Below the pieces are notes generated by a model. It saw only the letters and a list, made by a program, of their open reading frames with translations. It was not told where the DNA came from and ran no database searches. DNA of 61,103 bases, counting the filler, from Sphacelaria rigidula (lineage: Eukaryota), in NCBI GenBank assembly GCA_964200075.2. It is 4 parts of 4 records of this genome, joined end to end, with 100 filler letters (N's around TTAATTAATTAA, not from the genome) between each part and the next. Parts side by side here need not be neighbours in the genome. Positions count along the whole stretch, not along the records: positions 30,607 to 45,807 come from CAXNAA020001866.1; 3 more parts are not named here. The stretch is one strand, 5' to 3'. Below, piece after piece: positions 15,205-45,907 of the stretch. The position numbers were made by a program, and so were the translations under genes. Positions within the stretch are counted from its first letter, which is position 1; every line of letters begins with the position of its first letter.

Positions 15205-15304
15205 NNNNNNNNNNNNNNNNNNNNNNNNNNNNNNNNNNNNNNNNNNNNTTAATTAATTAANNNNNNNNNNNNNNNNNNNNNNNNNNNNNNNNNNNNNNNN
15301 NNNN
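15205..15304. other. Artificial contig-join linker
   Basis: Ns flanking TTAATTAATTAA (stop codons in all six frames). Confidence 0.95.
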
Positions 15305-30506: not shown

Positions 30507-30606
30507 NNNNNNNNNNNNNNNNNNNNNNNNNNNNNNNNNNNNNNNNNNNNTTAATTAATTAANNNNNNNNNNNNNNNNNNNNNNNNNNNNNNNNNNNNNN
30601 NNNNNN
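30507..30606. other. Artificial contig-join linker
   Basis: 44N-TTAATTAATTAA-44N. Confidence 0.95.
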
Positions 30607-30626
30607 AACCAACCTACATAGAGAGT

Positions 30627-32375
30627 GTCTTACAGCACTCGTCATGGACCCTGCCCTGTTTTGTTCTCATGGGGATAAGGGGTGAGGGCCATCACGCTAC
30701 TGGCGAGCGAAGGACAATAAAGCAAAACGCTGACTACCCGCGAGCACCAGCGACAGCAGTGATGATGCCAGCCAAGCCATCACTACAAACAAGGTTTTTG
30801 TGAGATTTAGAGTAGAGGATACGATTGAGAGTGAAAAGCGGTCAATCTAGTGGATTACCCTTTTCAGTTCCGAAATGCCCCTCTACGAGAGGCCCAGCAT
30901 GCCTCCTGTAGCAGCTTGCCACTGAGGCCCTTGATATCCCTGGGTAGGATATTGACGTGTAGCTCTAAGCACACGCCAATGATGGAGGGGAGAAAGAGTG
31001 CACACGGAAATGAATAGTTGGCTGAGTTGAAGCGAATGAATGAAGCCACTCCCGCGCTCTACTCTCAATCTCACGAAAACGTTTACAGCCAATGCATACA
31101 CTACAGTAATGTTGTGTGTACTCTTGTCCGTGCTTTCCTTTCAGCCAAGTAGTACCGTGCAGTGAACAGCACAACCGTCACTTCTGCAGGCAGTTATTAG
31201 TACAGCAAGGCGATGTTCGATTTGATCGTCTTCCGTCACGCAGCCCACCATGTATTGCTCAGGCGATGTATCACAAAAGTAGTACAGTTGGTGCGGACCG
31301 TACACCACGACACGACAGCAGAGTGCTGCGTCTATCTCGCGCGTCCCAGAATTTGAAATTATGCCTGCACACCTCATAGAAAACGATGAGCACTGCATTT
31401 TCAATTTTGACAGAGCGTCGATTACCTGAGGAAGGGTACTTTGAAGAATTATGTGGAAAATCGCGCTGTTGAGAAACGGCTTTTTTTGACTACGTGTTTT
31501 TCATAAATACGAAGTAGCCTTGAATGTGATCGAGATGATCATGATGCTTCGTATGATTGTGACGTGTGGTGGGGAGAGCGCGAAATTTTTGCATTAGTAT
31601 CATATACCTATACCATGGTCATTCAAACTCACTCGTGTTTATTGAAGCGCCATGTTCCAGGATTTTTAAATTTATTGCAAACTTGAAATTTCACCACTAC
31701 ATCTGGCGTGTTCATGACATGTCATGTAACGTATAACGTAACATATAACGCTACGTGTAACGTGTAACGTCTAATGCACGTGTAACGTGTAAGAGACGTT
31801 ACACGTTACATGAAACATTTCATATTACGTGATTTAAACGTTTGGGCAATTAAACGTTCACGTTACGTTACGTATGTCACGTTAAATAGAATAACGTTAC
31901 GTTAACGTTCCATTTGAATTTTAACGTTACTTTCACGTTACGTTCATCACGTAAAACAAATTTAACGTTCACGTTACGTTTCGGTCAAAACGTAACGTGA
32001 ACGTAACGTGTAACGCTGTGGCACGTGTAACGTGTAGACCCCTGGATTTTTTGGATGGGACAAGTGTGACGTAACGTGATGTAACATGTGGTCCTTTGAA
32101 TGAACCCTAACGTAGCGTTTCACTTTCCAACTATGACGGAAACTCTGCATGTTTTCGTGAATTTGTAACGTGTCACGTGTCACGTTAAAAAATCACAAGA
32201 ACAGCCTTTTTTCAAATCTGGAAAATTCCAAGAGACACTACTTCAAGGCCCACATATTACATTACGTCACGTTACATATGTGCCGTCCAAAAAATCAAAC
32301 CTTACGTGGCGCTAAATGGCCCAAAGTTACGTTGTTCCCGGTCTCTTCGAAGAAAGTGACACGCGTGTAACGTGT
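30627..32375 (+). mobile_element. Non-autonomous element with ACGT-motif-rich region; inverted-orientation copy at ~58890-59950
   Basis: 30630-30787 is the reverse complement of ~59790-59942, and 31085-31980 of ~58900-59790. Dense (gtt)acacgttac/aacgt motifs at 31715-32375. Confidence 0.8.
30788..31084. mobile_element. ~295-bp MITE with ~27-bp TIRs nested in the element above
   Basis: aaggtttttgtgagatttagagtagag versus ctctactctcaatctcacgaaaacgtt. Absent from the sister copy, which reads ...gccatcattacagccaatgca uninterrupted. Confidence 0.75.
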
Positions 32376-35300
32376 ATATCCGTGTTTTCCCCCCAAATTC
32401 ACGGAATCCTCTATTTGGTCCTGGAATATGTTTGAACGATATGTGTCATTTCAGTCTGCCGCTTCTTATAATGGAACAGTTATTAGGGGAATTAATCTCC
32501 AATATGCAGAGGCCCCAATATGCATGCAAACGGGGTGACTCAGACTTGCGAAATTTAAGTTTGCAGCGGCTCCATTATGGCTTCACAAATTTGTTGACAT
32601 AATTCTGCATACGGAGAGTCATCTTCCGAAGCGGTGGGGTATCGCTAACGAGTGTAGCCGAAGGACAGGCGGGCAGTGAATCATCCCTCAGGTGCAGTGC
32701 CGTACCGTGGTACCCTAAGGCGGTGCGGTGTAGTATACTCCATCCTCACGATATACACTAATACCGTGCGGTAATATTCCCAAGCTCCGATATGAGATTG
32801 GGTCTCTATCAGCGAAACGAGGGTGAGTTTGTCGATCTATTGACGTAAATCACCCCTGAATCGATTGACTCTATCAGCTGATCTTAGTCCACCGTGCGAA
32901 TTTCGCGCCACTCGATGCATCTCCGCGTAGGCAAGATGATTTTGTATGCTCTCCGAATCCTTTGAGCAGGTATCGTCTCATGCGGCATGCGGAGGTCGAT
33001 GTTGCGCTTTCAAGCGACAGGAGAAGAGTCGAATCTCCCGCAGACCCGAAAGTAATCACAATCCTGTTACGGTAATTTTTTAAACCGATGGGTGGCCCCT
33101 TGATTGATCGATTCTCAAAAGCCGATCTCAGCCCACAGAACGAACCTCGCGCTGTTTGATACATTTCTGTGTAGGCAAGATGATCTCGTGAGCTCTTATA
33201 TGTCTTTCAAGCAGCTATTGTCTCCTGCTGCACGCGAAAAGCGATTTTGCGCTCTCACGGAATTTGCCGTAGATACTAAATAACTATGAACGTGATAGGG
33301 TGGGTGTACTCATGATCATGCATGCCATAGTCATTAGACCATTGAACCTGATTGGGGTGGATTATTCCACCCTGCGATTCGCAGTTCAACCTTCAAGCCC
33401 ACCTGCCGCGGGTCTTACATCCAATACAACCCCATCACGGATCGCCTGGCCGGCACCTACGTTTTCCGCAGCCCTTCAGGACGGCCAGAGACGGTAGATA
33501 CTCACCCACTACACGCTTGGCAACCCTTCGGGCTGCTTAAATATATCTTGTGGCATAAAATTGGTAATGAATAGTTTTGCACCTCAACACCAGCACCCGA
33601 GGAAGACACAATGGCTGCGCAGCCATCACGTAATTCTTTCAACTTTGTATAGAGGGACAACACCGTGTTCCTACTCCAGTCCCGTACAGACCGGAACACA
33701 GCAGCAGTACAGTAGCTCAGGCAATGCCCGCCGCAAATCGAACCGTCCTCGCATTATTCGAACGCTTCACAGGATACCGTCTTGCTCCTCTTGTTCATTT
33801 TCTACTTTCTGTCAAAACGAGTGCACTTAACCTGCGCAATAAAGTTGCTCCAACAGCTAGCGAAGGTAGGCACGGTCCGTGCTGTCACGAGACTGTCTGC
33901 TGCTGCGGTTCAATCGGATCTGACGCCGCTTTCGTGCACATTGGGGGGGGCTCAAGTTACCAATCGCGTGAAAATCGAGGAATCCCAATCTGAGCTCCCT
34001 CAATCCGGGTCATATATGCGCCTGTGATGAGCGAAATTCAAATCTGACCGATCTTAATCTGCGCACAAATTCAGCTTTGTGCCACCACAAAAATAGATTT
34101 TGGTCGCCCCTTCGATTGACAAAACTGGAACAATAATACCGCCCAACCTTCGACGCCGATCGCTCCGGGGCTGTTGCTCACCAGCTCTTCTCTTCTTGCA
34201 GAAACTACCTCCAACGCCTAGGTGTCGCGTGTTCCATGGTACCTGACTTCCCTACTCTCGCTCAGTGTTGAACCTTTTGTCACAGAACAGTATCTAAGGC
34301 TGACGGTCCGAGGGTATCATGAGAGTGCTTTCTCGTTCGAAGCGTGGGGGTGTGGGTTTCCGGATCATCGAAGGGAACTTCCTCAATCAAATATAGGTCG
34401 GGTAACAAGCCTGATGGAAGTGGGCTCGCCATTTTGATACAGTAGGTTTGATGGGTCAATTGATGTACTCGTACTCTTATGTTCAATGTTCCCCTGTTAG
34501 TACAAATCGCCGGACATCGCCCACCTGGCGGCACAGCTGCATGATAGATTGTGCGACGACCAGTCAACCACTGGAAGACACAAAAAAGAGGGGTACCTTT
34601 TGGTGTTCGCGCAGTCTTCGCACGCTGCCTGCCCCCGCTTGTGTTGCTTTTGTCGTCAAGGCAGCTGCACATCATCGTTGCATACCGCTACGCGGCGAAA
34701 TGGAAACGAGGGTCCAGGTGTTAAAAGGTTCAGCGGTTGCTTGTCACATTACCCGCCGATAACGCTTGTCAATGCTTCAGACCTATCCATAGTATAGCGC
34801 AGTCGCCATGAACCGGTGCCCGTTGTACAGCACTTCATGAGCACTCTAATGCACTACACGTATACCTACACCACTCGAATGCCAAGTGCCAGCTGGTGCG
34901 AGTACTTGATGGTGCAAAGCGCGTACTCGTGTCTCTATGCTGTAGTGTACGTGAACTACGAACACATGAGAGATTTGGCCTTGAAACGGACTGCTGATGT
35001 ACTGTGGTACTCTTGAATACCAGGAGCTGCGGCCTTCCGCAAGAGCCTCCAAGTGACCTTGCGCTCCCTCTAACGTAGCCCAGACAGTTTTTGTAACGAT
35101 AATCACCGATCCCCTTCCGTGTTCGATACGGAGTACCGGCACAGCATTTTCAAGAATTGATAACACAGGGTTCTTATTTTTCTCTCCTCCTCTTCTCTCC
35201 CTGTTTTTTTGTCCTTCCTCTCCTCTCCCCCCCCCTGCATTTTTTCTCTGTTTTGTTTCTAGTTGATGTCGAGTTTACTCCGTTTTTATTCTCTACTTCT

Positions 35301-35759
35301 TCCTTTCTCGAGTTTCGCCTAGCGAGTTGATCTGTGTCGTTACCTTGAGCACGCCTATCTTGTGAATACGACAGGGTTCCTCGCAGATGAGTTAATGTTA
35401 ATGCGCGACAGCCAATGAATCATTTAAATCAAAGCGACCAATCGATAGAGGGGCTATCCAAAGTTACTCATGTGTCGTGCCTCTTGACAACCTTCAAACA
35501 GCAGATACGCACCAGCCGACGGCCCACGGGCACAATATTCGCGGTCTCATCACCGAAGAAGTATTTGCATCATGTACTCGGGAACGTCCCAGGACAGCGG
35601 GGCCTGCCCGTGGCCGTGAGCGGCGTCGTAGTGGTCACAGTGACTTGTCTGCTCGCCTCGATCAACAGCGACAATCTCCCCGCCAGTGCTTTGGGTACTG
35701 ACTCCAAGATCGAAGTCGACGCTGTTGCACAAGATGGGAACGAAGTTTGCAGCGGAGCC

Positions 35760-38700
35760 ATGAGAGGAACCACCACATCCGACGAGCGACGGGCGGGCTA
35801 CATTGAGAACGCCCAGTTGGTGGCGACGGCTCACGAACTTCGGCGTTCGCTTGATCCACCACACCAGAGCTTGTTCCGTGTGGTGTGCATCCTGCTGTAC
35901 GAGGACGTGTCGGGAAAGATGCGTCGAATCACTGGCGAGTAAATACCTCCTCACCATTACAGCTAATCGTTCCGATATTAGTGTGAACGGCTTCGTGGGG
36001 ATGGTTTCGGTAGTGTGAAGTAGTGTGAAGTGATATCGAGAGGATAACGCCGCCTCGTTTTTCTCGCTTCATCTCGGGTGCTGCTTCCGTGCCTGACATT
36101 ACCTGCTTCGCTGACCTATGGAGGTGCGTGCGAGAGTTAGACAGCACCGTCTTCGGTATTTTCTTGAAACCATAAAAATCTCGCGGCTTGAGTGAGTACA
36201 GGCGTGCCCCAGCGGGCAGTGTCAACGCGTGTAATATCTTAGCGATGCACGGATCGCATAAAATTACCCCAAGACTACAGTACTCGAAGAGCGAGGTGTT
36301 ATGAGAGCGTGGGCTTTTCATCGGTCGTGGGCAAACATTTGGTCTCTTCCTTTTTACCCAAGCTTCCGCTGGATGATTGGGTCGTTCTCTGTGCTTGTGT
36401 CGTATCAGGGACAAACTGCGAGCCTAGCACTATCGGGGGATCTATATGTGCGGAGCGTGCGGCCATGTGCAAGCTGCGCGAAGTGACTGATTGCAAGCTC
36501 GTGACGAAGGTGGTTGTCGTGACGGATAGTCCTCGACCGCTACCTCCTGGTACGCACGTATGTATGTTGAGGGAGCTTTTGACGCCACGATATAGTGTTC
36601 CAGTTATACAGTGTTGGGCACGATACGAGGAGAAGTCGCCGCCATACAAGATGTACAAGTTGCTGACCGTGCTGACGTTCGAGTGTAAGGTTTCATGCTT
36701 TTTTCATACGGTATACACTACTTGTATCCCCCCCCCCCCCCGCGCACCGCGCGCGCGCCTTGGATATCCGATAGCCAGCAGATATTTGTTCCGCTTAACA
36801 CACGCAATGGGTTTGGCGTTGAGCACCCAAGTTCTGCCTCGTGATCAGCACACGTAAACACAAAAATGACCCTCCCTTTCATCAGACGCATCTACATGTA
36901 GCAAAGACATGCCTCGCTCTGACCTAATCCCTACTTGCAAATTCCGTGCTGGCACGTTGGGGACGAGTATTCCGCCAACAACGATAATATAGGCCATAGC
37001 ACATGACCACCGCGACTAGCTTACAGTTCAGTGCGGTTCGCCTTCTCTTGTGCTCGTGCCTCGTACGTCTCCTTCTCGATTAATGAAAGACCTTCTGGGA
37101 ATGACCATCGCGTTTACTGTACACACGTTGAAGCACCCCAACGCACTGAGCGTTCGTTGCTCTTTGGCCCCGAAAGACTTCGTAGTGGCTGAGCCCTTTG
37201 ATCGCGAGGGTAAGTCATCTGGTCATGTAGTCATTTTTCAAGCGACATTGATGCTGATTCAAAAGATTGACTATGCTCGCGGTCAAAGGGTTGAGGTTGC
37301 AAAATGTACACGAAATCCATGGCTGTGCCAACCCATCTGCTTGCCTGCATTTTTGTCAAATACAACCGCGCCCTGAAGGCGTGTTGTGCAGGGAGTTTCT
37401 CTCGGCACACCTGCCCCCGTGTACTCCGGTCATCATGGCTGGATCCGGGGATGATACTCTCCTGTCTGACGCAGGAGGCTTCGAGTACGACAAACACGAT
37501 TCCCAGTCCCCGAGTGTCGTCAACACCGATCTTGACGCGAAGTACCATGCAAGAACCAGTGAAGCGGAAGTGGCTCAGTCTACGTGCAATTGTGCGAAAG
37601 AGGAACGGTCGGACGAAGGCGCCGGACAGCCAAGAGGTACCGTGCCCCCGCGCGGGGGCTCGGGATGCATTGACATGACCACTGTCGGCCAGTTGTACCC
37701 TTGGAGAAATCTGTACGGCTTGACCCCGCGAGGGGACCAGCTCAGACTCGGCTTCGTCAGACAACAGGTACGGAATTGTGCGTGTAGATCTTGTGACCTG
37801 CGCACTACCGTGCAGTGCTCTTCGAATTCATTACAGTGGAGAGAAAGAGGTGCACACGAAGCATGATTACATGATCACATGATTACACATGTGATTCGTT
37901 GCGGTAGGAGAGACAAACCATGAATTCGCCCGCGTGGCAACATAATGTCTAGGGAACATGAAGTACCGTTCCACTTGAAGCGTGCTCTCCTCATACCCCC
38001 TGGCGGTTGCTGTTGTTTTCAGCTGTGAAGCACTGCATTGTGCCGGGCGTTATCATGCGATATCATGTGCTATTCCGTTTCGTGGAAACTTCAGTGTCGC
38101 CTCGGTGGTCTGCTGCCTTCCGTCTACCTGCTATCTAGGCGTCCCAGAATCTTTCTAAGGCTGGAGTGGCGGAATCGTTAGGACTGGATAACGCGACGGT
38201 GGATGCATACGACAAAACCCAGAAAGCAACAGAGGATGACAATCAGGATGGAGTACATCCGATCAGGTTTCCTCAATCAACTGCTTTCACGTTATTTTGA
38301 ATTAAACCACCATTCCACCTGAGAGTTTGCACTTGGTGGATCACAACGGATTCGGTGTCTTGCTGTATCTTGCTGTATCCGTCGCTTTCACTCCCAGCTT
38401 TTCTCATGAAAAAACGGCCGCTGATCCAAGCACTAAACCACTGCAGCACTAAACTATCCCTGCTGTGCCCTACGCCCGTTTATAGGCTCACCTCCCACAG
38501 ATAGGGGTAACTCAAAGTGATGAACAGATTTTCGCGCGAAGCGCGATTATTGCTGAGCGTTTAGAAGTCGGCACTCGACAAAAATTGAGGACCCGTCTGA
38601 AATCAGGGGAACTTTCACATGGGGCGTGTCCTGTTTCACTGTGCTGCAGCACAAACACACTCGCCCTCCCTCATGTGCAGTAGCTGTCACTGCGCTGTGG

Positions 38701-41700
38701 TGTGTTTAAACCTTTGCGAACACTGTTTGGTCTCCGCCGGGACTGCGTGAGTTGCTTTATTGTGTTCGTCTCTATAGAAAATAATCTTCGTCGGCACGCA
38801 GTGCTGTCTGTTTATACGCTGTTGAAAACTTCATGGTATGTTGGCTGTTTCGTCTTCCGTCAAACGAACAAGGCGCTTCCCACGCCCATCATTTCTATGT
38901 TGTAGTTGTCGCTGTGCTGTTGTGCATTTGAACACTCTACGAACGTGGAGGGTGCCTGAACAGCTGTACCGCTGCATGCCGTTTTTCGGTCTGTACAAAT
39001 TCTTGTAAGGAATAGCAGAGACGGTATTGGAAAGACGAGCCTACGTCTGTGACCACGGGTTCGAGAGATCGGATTAATGCCCGGAAATAATAATGAATAA
39101 TAAATAATTGGGGTGGGATCAAAGTGCTGTCTATACAAAGTTGAAAAAATCAAGTGGCGGCTGTGCAACTGCCTATTGCGTCTTCTTTGGTACTTCAGTT
39201 GTAGTCAGGTGCTGTGATGAGGAAAGACATGCAAGGCGGGGGCGTGCAGGTAGGGGCAAACAAGCCGAGCCAGCGCGGAGCTGCTGTCCCCTCAGTTATT
39301 GATGATCGCAGCTGTCTGTCTCGCAGTGACGCAACGTGTGGGCCAATCAAAGCTATTTCGCCACTCATTTGCCACTTATTCCTCTCATTTGATTGGAGAC
39401 CAGTCGCCGCATTTTGGGTTTTTGGTATATTGAAAGGCCCTGATCGGTCGAAAAACCCTGCCACTCATAGTTTTTGCCCCTATCTGTGAACCCTGCGCCC
39501 GCTTATATGCACAACCGTAGATATGCGGCAGCAGCGGTTTTTCCAGATGGCCAGCTGGAGATCACCCATCAGGTTAGCGTCATACATGTTTCGTGTGTTT
39601 GTACTCCGGAACATTTACGCATTGCAGCACTAATTCTCCACGCCACGTGCGGCTGCAATGGACGACAGACTTCAGTTGTCTACATTCTATTCCCCGACAC
39701 ACCATGGGTCCGACCTGATCGTCGATTGCGTGCTCCCCTTGCTCTAAGTCATTTCGAGGTTCACATGGGCATCGCGCATGAGGTCAGGCGAATATCACCA
39801 CGTGCGCTCGTTTGGTGAGTGTGATGAGAGATGCGCCCTCAGGTGTGGCCATGGGTTTGTGTCGTTGCGATTGCACCGCACTTGTTGTACTACTTGTTGT
39901 ACTACTTGTTGTACTCTAGGTGAAAGCGCTCGAGTACGGGGCTACGCTGGACCCAGTTACGCTTCTAGCCCCGGTGCTGATGCGGCGTGCTAAGGGCGGA
40001 ATAAGGTCAGCACCATCGAGTAAAGTCACGTCTGATAACGACTACTTCCAGCTCACCCGCACGTGTTTCCCTCAGTCGCGCCAGCTTTACAAGCAGTGCT
40101 GGGAAAGGGCTACTCGGCATGTGATACAGGAGGCATGCTCTAGACGCGGAAAAGATTCGGGCTGACTCTAAAACCAGAGAATCTATGCTCTGTCTAGTGC
40201 AATAATGGCGAGTGCTTGAAAACGCGCGAAATGTTTCGTTGCGTCTGCCCTGCTAGATTGCCCTGCTACGGTCGATTAACTTGTGCGGCTTTCCCCCGCA
40301 TGCATGCCGACATGTCGGTGTCGTTCCTGTTGTGTGCACAGCTCGCTGCAGATCTGAGCCTAGAGTAGTCTTTCACGGACAAGCATATACAGTACGTCAG
40401 TAAGACGTGAGTCGGCGAATCCCCCACAGAAGTGCCCAAAATGCCCGCAGAAAATAGAACACGGCAATACCTTGCTGTTTTTACAGGGGCTAACCGATGT
40501 ATTGCTTCTTCAAGCCAAGCTTGTGCGCTTAAGCCCTACCTGACACCAAGAGATGGATGTTTCGTAGGCGCGGGTATCACAAGTGTCTTGCCTACAGTAC
40601 ATGCCTAGAGTACAACAACAGGAGAATGACAGAAGTGTGCGCAGCTTGTAGCTGCCTCAATGTTTTTCGTCTCTCTTGTCACATGCAGCGGTCTCAGAGG
40701 GTGCAACGTTCCGGCAGCCACCATATTGTCGCCAACTAGACATCCCGTGGGTCACTGTTCAGTTCCACCACTTTTGATTCGCCAGACAAAACATTTCTTC
40801 CATTTAGAGCTATGCTATGTGCAACTTATGACATGCCTGCAACCTACGTACAGCGTCAAATGATTTCATTTCAGTAATTGTCAGGTTTCTGGTTCGTTTT
40901 TTATCGTTTCTCGAACGTTTTCGGCCAATCGGGGCTTGCCAACACACCTCGCCCCCGCAGATAGTTGTGAACGAATCAGCAACTCAAGAAGCGCGTGATG
41001 GATGTGTACGCGGTGATTGCAGGCCTTCGTGCGTGCTGTTGGTGGACCAGTTCGGGAATCTGCATGCCCCTTTCGCTCAGGCACGCACGTTTCTTTGCGA
41101 GCAGGGCTTTGGAAACACCCGCGTTGTTGTCCACGGGGCCGACGGCAGACTTGTGGTGCTCAAGGCACAAGGTGAGAAGGTTACAAGGTTAGAAGCTTAG
41201 CTTTTTCTGCGTTCGTTAGGAACTTGGTATGCCGTGCTGCAGTGCAACCTTCCGTTGACCCGCGCGGTGCTGTTGTGTGAAAGAGATCCGTAGCAAAGGA
41301 GAGGGACGAGCTTACAATGAGACCGCCTATACGGAGGCACGGGTATATCAATGTGCACGAACGGCGCACGAGGTTTGTGCTTTTGTCCCAGTCCATGCCC
41401 ACATAATCACATTAGTGTGGGGGGAAGTTTTGCTTCTGCAGTTGATGTGTGGCAATCAATCGCTCTATTCAATCAAATCACTTGATGGTGCGTTCGAAGG
41501 CGGCTGGAGCTTAAGCATGTAGGTGTCAGTGGTGGTCGCTGTTTCTTGGCGCTCAGAGCAGCTACTACCGTTGCCGACGATCATTCGACGCTCTCCAGCA
41601 ACATTGTACTAACGCATTCAGCAACGTGCGAGAAAATTGGAAAACATGCAGTACGAGATGATGCTGGTTGTCCCCGACACGAGCAGCAAAAACATAACAT

Positions 41701-42057
41701 ACTTCGTATTCGCGTATCTCGAATATGTATCCTGGTTTTCAAAAGGAACATGCGAGCAACCTCACTAATACTGACACAACGTTCTACACACTACACAATC
41801 GTCCTCTTTTGTATGTACGCCTTGGTGTAAAAGCCTAATCTCCCTACGAAGTACAGAGTAGTACGAGTGGCAGAGAAAGCCACAATCCTAATCCAGATGA
41901 TCGACTAGTCAGGAGTGAGGGGCGTAGGGATACGGTGCCCATGATAACATAGTTTTCTCTTGACCATTCTTCCTGTCGTTCTCGACTGTGTCTACCTTCG
42001 TCGCTGCCTACAGACTTGGTTCCAAGAGTAACTACGGGCGGGGGATCACTCTGTTGA
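35760..42057 (+). CDS. CDA: Two-domain cytidine-deaminase-like protein; exons 35760-35934, 36409-36549, 37379-37767, 38139-38266, 39521-39572, 39920-40005, 41023-41171, 42014-42057 (387 aa from this ATG; true start may be upstream)
   Basis: All phases are consistent (1164 nt). Domain 1: PPHQSLFRVVCILL..IT|GTNCEPSTIGGSICAERAA..VVVVTDS..PP|GVLCREFL..TTVGQLYP. Domain 2: HPIR|YAAAAVFPDG..|VKALEYGATLDPV..LLVDQFG..ARTFLCEQG..AQ|DLVP. Intron 1 needs a GC donor (G|GCGAGT). Confidence 0.8.
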
Positions 42058-43997
42058 AGCATGGCCGTGTGGAGTTCCTCGGGGGTCTTCTCGCTTCTTC
42101 TACCGCTGTGCGGAAGGTTATACTTCCTCTGTCCCAGAAGTCTGTTCGATTATGGGGTGCGGGTCGTATATCGTGAACGAAGGCGCTTACGAAGCTGCAG
42201 TTAAGATTGGTAGAGATGAAAGTTGTGGAGATGCTCATAGAAAAAAAAAAAAAATGAAATATAACCCATTTTTGGCCTCTTTGAGCCTTGTATCAGCGAA
42301 GTTCGACATATTTTTACAATTTTCGCGCTGGACAAGAGTGACAACGTGGCAAAAGTGCCTTAGGACGAGACGTAGCTAGCCTCTGTTCATCAAGTAAGAT
42401 AAAACGAAGAGGTTTGTTATTTTTGTACCATTTCCCCCCGGGGTTTTCGTTCGGTTATTTTGCCCCCTGAAGGAGGGGGGCGAAATACGGCCACTTTCGG
42501 GCTTCGTGCTGTTTTGTCGGCCGCTCGGCCGCATGGGGAAATTAGCAAGTACTCCGGAGTAATGAAAAATGGCTGCGTTTGTAAAAACGTCAACGAATTC
42601 CACGAAAAAAACGAAAACAGAATGGGACATTGTCGGGGGGCGTACAAACATATCCGAGCAAACGTGTGAGACAGAGGGGGTAAGCGATCTCACCAGTCAT
42701 GCGAGTGTTTCTTGTCGTGGCGTGGGCTGAGAACACTGGGCTCAGGAAACGTCATCGACGGAACCGGGGTAGAGTGTAGACAGCGGTATGCAACGGCAGT
42801 ACGAGAAGAGCTGTATCTTGGTGCGTATGCCACTATTTATCAACCAACCTTGACAAGGTGGTGGTACAGTACAGTAGTGTCCCACCGAAGCCGCTGTTAG
42901 CGAGTGTGTCGGAAGTAAGGATATGACTGTCGCCGTGAGCCGTCTTGACAACACACCATTTATCAATGAGAAATGTGTTTCACCCTTTCTCAGCAGTGGG
43001 GGAAACGGGTGTGCAAAATAGGTTGCCGGTGGGATATAGCATTCCATACTCGGGCGTAGGTTTTACAGTCGGAGGTGATATGATGGCGACGGTAAGCGAT
43101 GCCGACTATTATAGCATGAGAACACGCACAATTTTGAAAATCTACGCGAGTTGGGGTGGTATTTTCCTTCACGAGACGGCGAGTTCACGTTTGTAATATT
43201 GGGTGGCAAAAAACGTTTCTTGTTTTTGGCAAGGTTTAGAGCCGTTCACCACGCAGTGCATCTGGCTTGTGCGCTTGATCCCGTCGTGAATGGATACCGT
43301 TCTGTACGCATCTCTTTCCCGGAACGCTACGCTATGCACGTGACAGAATTTCGTTCATCCTGGCGTATGTGCCAATCATTGTTGATCGCTTTCAAGCTCA
43401 TAATAGCCTGAGCTGGGTGGACATGATGGGGGGGTCCCGTTTCAATTGGGATCGAGCGGTGTCAATCAATCCCGCACGACATCTTTTGCCTCTCACGGTA
43501 CAGATTTACGCATAACATACACACAGATGCATTGATCACCTTCCACCACCCACATCACGCAATAGGCATCAAGCAACATAGCGTAGCACGTCGGCCGGCA
43601 CATGAACGATAGTAGTGCCAGCAGCCGTTGAATTGGAACGAGTTGGGAATATACCCTAAATCTAGCTTACAACGCGGCCCGAGCGAAAAACCGACAGACT
43701 TGGCCTCGCCGAGACGCACAACTCCGCTTCCGGTCTGTCTGTGCTTCATCAGAGTTCAAGTCACTGACCGCTGGCATTCCGGTATGTGGTGATGTTGGTA
43801 CACGTGCCTATCGGCGAGTTTGGATAGAGTAGTGTATCCCAATCCCAGCAATACAGTAGTTTTTTTTCTTCCTCCTGGATTCCGTCGTGGGAAGCGTGAG
43901 AATACGAGCAAAGAAAAAGAAAAGATGAAGTGGACTGGCTGGGGGATGCGGATGGTCACGATAATAAGCCATGTTCCAATGTTGAAATATATAAATC

Positions 43998-44180
43998 GTG
44001 CCCTGGCGGTCTGACTGGTGCAACTGACAGCAGTTAGGTCGGGAGCGCGGGTTCGACACCCGGCAGATGCAACCAGGTCTCTTTCTCAACGTGCCCTGCC
44101 ATCTTCAGGGCAGGAGTCATAACCCTCAAATGTGCAGGACAAGTTCTTTATGACCAAGGTTGAGGGGAGGGATGCTGGTG
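43998..44180 (+). mobile_element. tRNA-derived SINE-like head
   Basis: A-box-like TGGCGGTCTGACTGG, B-box GGTTCGACACC (44050-44060) and ACCA at 44072-44075. No pairing acceptor stem, so not a tRNA gene. Confidence 0.5.
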
Positions 44181-44184
44181 GTTT

Positions 44185-44900
44185 GTTGCTTGTCTTCTTG
44201 GTCACTTGACCGTGGGCCACGCATCCCTTTCGAGACGGAGAACCGTTCCTACTCCTGATACCGTAGAGACACGTCCAACATTTGGGCGCTCGATATACTT
44301 TTCCCATACATCACATAATAACCTATTGCATACCCTATCCCTTCCTATTTCCTCGTCTGTCACTACAATCTATCTTCTAGCACAGCTATCGTTTTCTCGC
44401 TGCTACCTAAAACGTACCAAACTTTTACATGTCACATTCCTTTAGTTATCTCATCTCCTCCTCTAACATGTCCCGTCCCTACTTCTTGACAACTGTAGTT
44501 CATATTTTCCTACTATATGTGTTCTACTCTCTGTTGCTTCGCTACAAGGGCAACCCCGTGCATCTACTCCCTCATCCATCCGACAACTGGAAGGTCCAGG
44601 TCCCCTTCCCGAAGTCGCAGTTTCAGGGTTTTTCGCGTAATAGGGCCGTGCTAATATGCTTCCGTCCTTGTGTCTTCTCCCAACCCCTCCCATATCTTCA
44701 AGTGTTTTTCCTCGTCCACTCCGTCTTCGCCCCATTTCTCCCCTCATTTCTATTGTTTCTTGTACTTTTGTCTTGTGCATCCCTCGCACACCTACGGACA
44801 ACATCTATTTTTGTTCTCTTACATTCTTCCACACTTTCTAGACTACACTCTCTCATCTTATTCTACGAGTAGTCTGCCCTTTCGTTAGTTTCTTCTGTAC
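44185..44900 (-). mobile_element. 5'-truncated LINE relic (C-terminus of ORF2)
   Basis: Frameshifted minus-strand pieces LKLRLREGDLDL, CPCSEATESRTHIVG (CCHC-like knuckle), SSEKTIAVL, ERPNVG, SRNGSPSRKGCV. The 3' end is shared with 2526-2583. Confidence 0.6.
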
Positions 44901-44956
44901 ATCCCCATCAGCTACGAACAGCGGATCCTCAAAAATGGGATCGATCTCGAAGATGA

Positions 44957-45690
44957 GGTTCAAGTGGCATATCCTTTTTGCAAGGATGACGAGAAACAGT
45001 AAAATAGAGCGAAACCATCTCTAACCCCCAAAACCGCAGGAGTGAATAATCAGTTGTGGCTAATGCACCGAACGACTGCGGTTTACACGCGTGTCGATGA
45101 CGATATCACCAGAGAGAGAAGCAACGACAGAGAGGAAGCTCCTCGTCCGTGTCCTTTGTGTGCCCTCGCTGGGCGATTACCAATCGCTCGAGAGACTGGC
45201 ATCATGCATGTGACCAGCACGTGCCGAATTTGTCATGTGCCGGTAGGTATCCCCAACGAATATCGAGCTGCGGAAAGATTTCGTCTCTTCTTTTTGTCTC
45301 TGGAGCTCATCAATGCGAAAATCGATTTCTCTCTGCCTCTCGTTCTGGACAGGACGCACTTCTGTGCGCTGAAAAATAGGACAATGTTCCCGTCACCGCT
45401 ACTACTGTTCTCTGTCACACACATGCCAGCAAGGACGGTGCGCTGTGGCAAAAATAACAGATGCTCCAATTTGAACTTGGGGGTGTTATTCATCGTTGAT
45501 TTTACCCTGACATATCTGACCATCCAGGTGCCCGAGCACAAGAGCCTGCCACAGGCCAGTTGGGTGAGTGTGTGAGAGAGATCAAACACTTGTGGAGACC
45601 GTCTTGACATGCGGAGTGGAAAAAGATACCTGTGGTGGTGACCTAACTGTTGCTAGCGTGGTGCAGAGGGGTGCGTCAGCTGCAATCTGG
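44957..45690 (+). repeat. Dispersed repeat, copy 2 of 5795-6530; similar terminus (ggttgaagtggcatatc) also at 61077-61098
   Basis: Collinear identity blocks with 5795-6530. Confidence 0.75.
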
Positions 45691-45807
45691 AGCTTTCGTT
45701 GCTCTACTCCACTGACTCCCGTCTGCAGAGCGTCTGTCGTGGTCTGATCACGAGGTGACACTGGCTTCACTCTCGAAGGACATGCTAGGCCAGGGGTGAC
45801 ACGAGGT

Positions 45808-45907
45808 NNNNNNNNNNNNNNNNNNNNNNNNNNNNNNNNNNNNNNNNNNNNTTAATTAATTAANNNNNNNNNNNNNNNNNNNNNNNNNNNNNNNNNNNNN
45901 NNNNNNN
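45808..45907. other. Artificial contig-join linker
   Basis: 44N-TTAATTAATTAA-44N. Confidence 0.95.

Follow-up and report, generated by a model that had tools for sequence, protein, structure and literature searches.

A two-domain cytidine deaminase-like protein of Sphacelaria rigidula and a tentatively proposed zinc ligand in its decayed second domain

According to Table 1 of Iyer et al. 2011 (PMC3239186), the PITG_06599-like clade of stramenopiles and haptophytes has two deaminase domains and a CAE motif. In its description there, the N-terminal domain is without the initial C of CxxC, the C-terminal domain is inactive, and both domains "appear to be inactive". The gene studied here lies in Sphacelaria rigidula, on the third contig (CAXNAA020001866.1, positions 30607–45807) of the 61,103-nucleotide stretch that was analysed, hereafter the window. 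This is composed of four contigs joined by N spacers (15205–15304, 30507–30606 and 45808–45907), and genes across a spacer are not true neighbours. The gene encodes two domains of the cytidine deaminase (CDA) type, the first of which reads PGVLC where PCxxC is usual. From sequence comparisons we suggest, with somewhat less than an even chance of being right, that the protein is an active pyrimidine-nucleoside deaminase, with zinc predicted on C72 and C109 of domain 1 and on E300 of the decayed domain 2.

Five features are shared with the PITG_06599-like clade: two deaminase domains; an N-terminal CAE (C72-A73-E74), as in CDD/CDA; the loss of the first CxxC Cys (G106, RNA-supported, with G in 204/205 relatives); a C-terminal domain without catalytic residues; and occurrence in stramenopiles and haptophytes, the haptophyte label coming from one member. 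By these features, rather than by comparison with the PITG_06599 sequence, the protein very probably belongs to that clade; no protein named PITG_06599 appeared among 30 cluster look-ups or the named matches. The strand-5-end E listed for CDD/CDA, if it is position 210 by our own mapping, is Q in the S. rigidula protein (E in 77, D in 48 and Q in 21 of 206 family members). The original prediction of a distinct deaminase subfamily therefore holds as to distinctness but not as to novelty, and, the family being already described, the gene alone is modest news.

The first searches returned 87 proteins; a profile search then gave 3824 representatives at a threshold of E 0.001, and 375 at 1e-30. Among 50%-identity representatives, the family has no fewer than 375 database proteins with E < 1e-30. 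Named members are from brown algae, diatoms, Chrysoparadoxa, an ochromonad (Ochromonadaceae) and Lapot gusevi, and the commonest labels of the Atlas clusters are Oomycota, Bacillariophyta and Haptophyta. Six representatives (P0126, P0130, P0135, P0139, P0145 and P0149; 1064–1745 aa) present N-terminal leucine-rich repeats (LRR) fused to the two-domain deaminase. The five named ones are all from centric diatoms (Thalassiosira, Conticribra, Cyclostephanos), the fusions cluster in a single clade, and the listed exceptions at catalytic positions include none of them.

Eight sequencing runs contain the stretch, none of them being on record as RNA, and four of the eight were compared with the locus. 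Three of these four, all from one study, are RNA-like (the kind is the tool's guess), and the kind of the fourth is not on record. All seven introns are skipped by contigs from 3/3 RNA-like runs, which bears out the prediction that eight exons splice into one frame; the fourth run has none of the seven joints and covers the introns evenly, as DNA would. Joined by coordinate, the exons give a single frame of 387 aa, from the ATG at 35760 to a stop ending at 42057, which by eye is identical to database protein P0001 (NCBI label Sphacelaria rigidula). The 36549/37379 junction, for which a check on RNA reads had been proposed, is present in the three RNA-like runs as an 829-base GT..AG skip with a short side of 141 letters, and PGVLC, with its intron-split Gly codon (36546; 36549 plus 37379–37380), stands as first read. 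The splicing of the RNA-like contigs revealed no hidden exon restoring the cysteine, and their exon 1–3 pieces have 0 letters differing from the genome. Joints 3–7 were flagged "between: not known", yet their ends are GT..AG. Intron 1, which is GC-AG in the three RNA-like runs, interrupts the Gly codon of GTNCE; the acceptor of intron 2 is AAG, despite a TGCAG 13 bases downstream. The motifs GTNCE, CAE (36447), KALEYG (39923), DQFG (41045) and HAPF (41063) are where they had been placed, and two exon searches indicated that the gene is single-copy in the genome. Its parts are as follows.

35505..35934, plus strand: exon 1, with AG acceptor at 35503–35504 and GC donor at 35935; residues 1–58 of P0001
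35935..36408, plus strand: intron 1, GC-AG
36409..36549, plus strand: exon 2, with N61 (36414), E63 (36420), C72 (36447) and the catalytic E74 (36453), and further R75, D98, P105 and the first base of G106
36550..37378, plus strand: intron 2, GT-AG (AAG acceptor), splitting the G106 codon
37379..37767, plus strand: exon 3, with the rest of G106, V107, L108, C109 (37387), R110 and E111, and further a low-confidence insert, the end of domain 1 (P213, Y218) and a linker helix
38139..38266, plus strand: exon 4, start of domain 2, with H275-P276
39521..39572, plus strand: exon 5, coding for strands 1–2 of domain 2 in 52 nt
39920..40005, plus strand: exon 6, with K297, the invariant E300 (39932–39934, proposed third zinc ligand), Y301, G302 and D306
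41023..41171, plus strand: exon 7, with D332-Q-F-G, H338, P340-F-A-Q-A-R345 (decayed PCxxCR) and E350
42014..43207, plus strand: exon 8, with V376-P377, the stop ending at 42057 and a 3′ untranslated region of ~1.15 kb

The alignment of domain 1 with domain 2 by hhalign covers 102 columns (E 9e-5, probability 59%), and both halves of the predicted model match CDA structures; residues 139–198, an insert in domain 1, have pLDDT < 50. At the positions of C53, E55, C86 and C89, in the numbering of B. subtilis CDA, domain 2 has D306, V308, F341 and A344. The structure matches, the hhalign result and the lost catalytic residues bear out the second, non-catalytic CDA-like domain that had been predicted, and support its being a decayed duplicate of the CDA domain. 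Around its own dead pocket (39923–39952 and 41045–41065), domain 2 conserves K297, D306, Q333 and H338, polar residues that may form a second ligand-binding or regulatory site.

Conservation was assessed in an alignment of 209 of 211 proteins (two exon fragments dropped), drawn from the 87 first-search matches and the best 150 of the 3824, with a mean identity of 35%. The GxNxE substrate motif and CAE, predicted as intact in domain 1, are so in S. rigidula (N61, E63, C72, E74) and nearly so in the family, at 98.6–100%: N61 is found in 193/195, E63 in 195/195, C72 in 196/197, E74 in 197/197, R75 in 195/197 and C109 in 204/207. The first CxxC Cys is absent in 205/205 relatives, where G106 is found in 204/205, and both PGxxC and DQFG..HAP proved to be conserved among relatives. 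On a 197-tip tree with a length of 124 substitutions per site, the tested positions E63, E74, C72 and C109 required 0–2 parsimony changes against a median of 56, with 0 for the catalytic Glu and 1–2 for the two remaining Cys; their domain 2 equivalents have changed. A dead site would seldom retain an invariant proton shuttle, and this conservation argues against the "inactive" label for domain 1. Degenerate members also occur: P0012 lacks N61, C72 and C109, and P0189 lacks C109, both retaining E74 and E300.

Which residue could replace the missing cysteine was considered next to the five fully invariant columns, E63, E74, D332, R345 and E300 (199/199). D332 and R345 are equivalent to D98 and R110, structural residues of domain 1, whereas E300 has no such counterpart there, position 47 being Ser in three solved CDAs and variable in domain 1. 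E300 required 0 parsimony changes, H338 4 and D306 5. The neighbouring residue is Y or F in 199/199, and the conserved copy of the capping loop of tetrameric CDAs (E300, Y/F301) sits on domain 2; docking of a tetrameric CDA, as given in a passage of PMC9897663, has Ala46 and Tyr48 from another subunit entering the active site. A Glu opposite a near-invariant Gly would be the expected look of a ligand swap, and E300 is the best candidate for the third zinc ligand. It lies in KALEYG, which had been quoted in the original prediction but not put forward as a ligand. The idea of a replacement third ligand is thus plausible, with a different residue from those named at the time: the Cys of NCE (C62) was rejected, being C in 13/195, H275 fails, being Tyr or Phe in 17/200, and H338, conserved in 192/196, is less likely, mapping to the V83 position and facing domain 2's own pocket.

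The contact between the domains was addressed by covariation, using mean-field direct coupling analysis on 197 sequences. V107–V376 ranked first (z 12.3), L108–G302 sixth (8.6), Q36–H275 eighth and I67–T304 fifteenth. Where residue 108 is Ala, Ser or Gln (10 sequences), residue 302 is Ser or Ala in every case, and where it is Leu, Met or Val (187 sequences), residue 302 is Gly in 183; a targeted simulation of L108–G302 gave 11–26 of 4000. None of 11 whole-alignment simulations reached 12.3. Because of the L108–G302 covariation, the EYG loop probably lies against the PGVLC helix at its first turn, at a distance of two residues from E300 and from G106.

In the mechanism proposed, zinc would be held by C72, C109 and E300, the last reaching in from domain 2, and a pseudo-tetramer may form from two chains. 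The ribose 3′-OH would be bound by N61 and E63, Y301 would close over the 5′-OH like Y48 in tetrameric CDAs, and E74 would shuttle protons as the zinc-bound water attacks C4. With Gly at 106, the E300 carboxylate could fit in where the CxxC helix starts, and the retention of R75 would follow from the three anionic ligands that remain at the site; in PMC9897663, R56 was mutated to Gln along with a Cys-to-His change, after the model of the E. coli enzyme. Duplication may have freed one copy to give the ligand and the other to lose the canonical cysteine. The most likely substrate would be cytidine or deoxycytidine, for pyrimidine salvage, since the closed nucleoside pocket (F39, V41, N61, E63, Y301) makes these the default and RNA editing unlikely. 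If true, the E300 reading would overturn the published "inactive" label for at least 375 proteins (E < 1e-30, 50%-identity representatives). It would also bring a further ligand set to the CDA fold, in which PCxxC serves to call activity from sequence, present a pseudo-domain that supplies a metal ligand, and point to a probable enzyme of pyrimidine salvage in brown algae, diatoms and relatives.

Several points weigh against an active enzyme with E300 as ligand. The protein set was picked by similarity, which inflates motif conservation, although the same bias acts on both domains. L108–G302 was chosen after the scan; its simulated value weakens to 72–153 of 4000 if three nearby A108/S302 clades are counted as one event, and in one of the 11 whole-alignment simulations a pair between the domains scored 8.8, where L108–G302 has 8.6, so that the latter is borderline. 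Being invariant, E300 cannot itself covary, and covariation locates the loop and not the way in which the side chain of E300 points. E300 as a ligand leaves the conservation of K297, D306, Q333 and H338 unexplained. The genome also carries, on two contigs, LmjF36.5940-like (PF14421-type) pieces that have CAE and PCGAC and may come from one gene (L010 and L011), and therefore the gene studied here need not be its only cytidine deaminase. No activity or zinc study of the family was found in searches of an open-access library. Other points of this kind fit a catalytically dead nucleoside-binding protein, a sensor or scaffold whose pocket is kept for binding only and in which E300 is structural. 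Apparent inactivity is the published judgement on both domains in PMC3239186, and the first CxxC Cys is absent in every relative. The CxxC cysteines do matter, since a double C88H/C91H mutant of a tetrameric CDA is inactive (passage of PMC9897663). P0012 and P0189 keep E300 despite their lost cysteines, as a structural role would have it, and the LRR fusions of centric diatoms could suit a regulatory one. We nevertheless consider a dead binder unlikely: the catalytic Glu and the two remaining Cys have hardly changed over the whole tree, and dead domains decay otherwise, as seen in the protein's own domain 2 and in a second CDA-like exon of this genome (L008:1486–1926, minus strand) that lost all three zinc cysteines (GAE, PDGPG). 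A possible identity for the latter is the inactive deaminase, fused to tudor, that PMC3239186 mentions for Ectocarpus.

An active deaminase in which E300 is no direct ligand has a similarly low probability. Here the third position would be taken by an E300-held water, H338 or D306, and E300 would cap the G106–C109 helix or bind the sugar. H338 and D306 (191/199) are conserved too, and the covariation places only the loop; but both residues map to domain 2's own pocket (the V83 and C53 positions) and have changed 4 and 5 times against 0 for E300. A zinc site with two Cys should, moreover, bind the metal weakly. Quite improbable is an active enzyme, with or without the borrowed Glu, whose main substrate is a different one, for instance cytidines modified at N4 or C5 that stem from RNA or DNA turnover, and which perhaps uses a different metal. 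Three residues after P377 the domain 2 tail has Pro (124/178), not Phe; Pro in place of the lid Phe makes a wider substrate range possible, and V107–V376 sets this tail beside the CxxC helix of domain 1. In passages of PMC9897663, F125/F126 of the partner subunit narrow the pocket of tetrameric CDAs, some of which accept N4-substituted nucleosides, and an aliphatic V83 position is linked to a narrow pocket. That position is aliphatic in this family (I/V/L 192/202), F39, V41, N61 and E63 are canonical, and the closed pocket would again speak against RNA editing. The last alternative, that PGVLC is a gene-model error, a sequencing error or a private mutation, could appeal to the weak AAG acceptor of intron 2 and the split codon; it is refuted by the junction in 3/3 RNA-like runs and by the family-wide Gly, and its probability is negligible.

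The predicted extent of the gene, 35760..42057, held at the stop and is doubtful at the start, as the ATG at 35760 may not be the true one. The RNA contigs extend 106, 158 and 93 letters 5′ of 35504, without placement on 34500–44000, and bases 35503–35504 are AG. Because of these 93–158 further letters, a ninth (5′) exon probably exists, and P0001, the NCBI model, may lack part of the N-terminus. An open stretch of 85 codons, in frame, runs from 35505 to the annotated ATG. Two features belong to this region.

35604..35654, plus strand: hydrophobic in-frame segment, possible membrane anchor (Kyte-Doolittle 17-mer mean 2.41)
34202..34238, plus strand: putative upstream exon, with ATG|GT at its end, in phase 0; one of 15 listed candidates, outside the read-covered stretch

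Hydrophobic 17-mers are also found within the N-extensions of P0004, P0005 and P0088, and a hydrophobic segment in 35 of 66 family N-extensions of 30–150 residues, against 4.9 expected from shuffles. The likeness of the leader to the P0004 extension is weak, its score being reached by 15/500 shuffles. In 104 of 180 members there is no anchor, because the N-terminus is short. The S. rigidula protein is somewhat likely to have a longer, membrane-anchored N-terminus, and the segment may tether the enzyme to a membrane in some lineages, perhaps including this one. A mitochondrial location, from Arg/Ser-rich leaders judged by eye, is a guess.

Two repeats were also observed. Intron 4 carries at ~38500–39250 a very high-copy interspersed repeat, whose summed depth in the fourth, DNA-like run reaches 87,973, unique DNA having ~12; it has an AAT-rich end near 39080 and a 38-nt inverted copy at 33616–33653, and gave no Rfam match. 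Dense ACGT/TAACGT-rich palindromic repeats at 31730–32385, with inverted arms of 47–52 nt, may be what is left of a foldback or miniature transposon.

Compared with known systems, the protein resembles the homotetrameric CDAs (B. subtilis 1JTK, yeast CDD1 1R5T, human 1MQ0; TIGR01354) in N61, E63, E74 and R75, which correspond to NxE, the catalytic Glu and R56. It differs from them in G106 instead of the three-Cys zinc set (CAE, PCxxC), in two fused domains with half the sites dead, in the Glu at loop position 47 and in having no F125 on domain 2, and it scores 39.4 bits with TIGR01354 against a cut-off of 113.65. With the homodimeric two-domain CDAs (E. coli 1CTT/1AF2, Arabidopsis 6L08) it shares a catalytic-type N-terminal domain and a decayed C-terminal copy; those, however, have HAE with PCxxC, not CAE with PGVLC. 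On superposition of the predicted model a single domain aligns, the long alignment having a root-mean-square deviation of 17 Å. The LmjF36.5940-like deaminases (PF14421) are likewise CDD/CDA-derived and found in stramenopiles, but keep PCxxC, and the score of 16.2 bits is below their cut-off of 27.1. As for the PITG_06599-like clade itself, E300, the membrane-anchor extensions, the LRR fusions and the Lapot gusevi member do not figure in the passages of PMC3239186 on the clade. Iyer et al. there call both domains apparently inactive, whereas the conservation found here favours an active domain 1; tentatively, a widespread family of protists filed as a double pseudo-enzyme may be an active Cys/Cys/Glu deaminase whose domains pair unlike those of the E. 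coli and plant CDAs.
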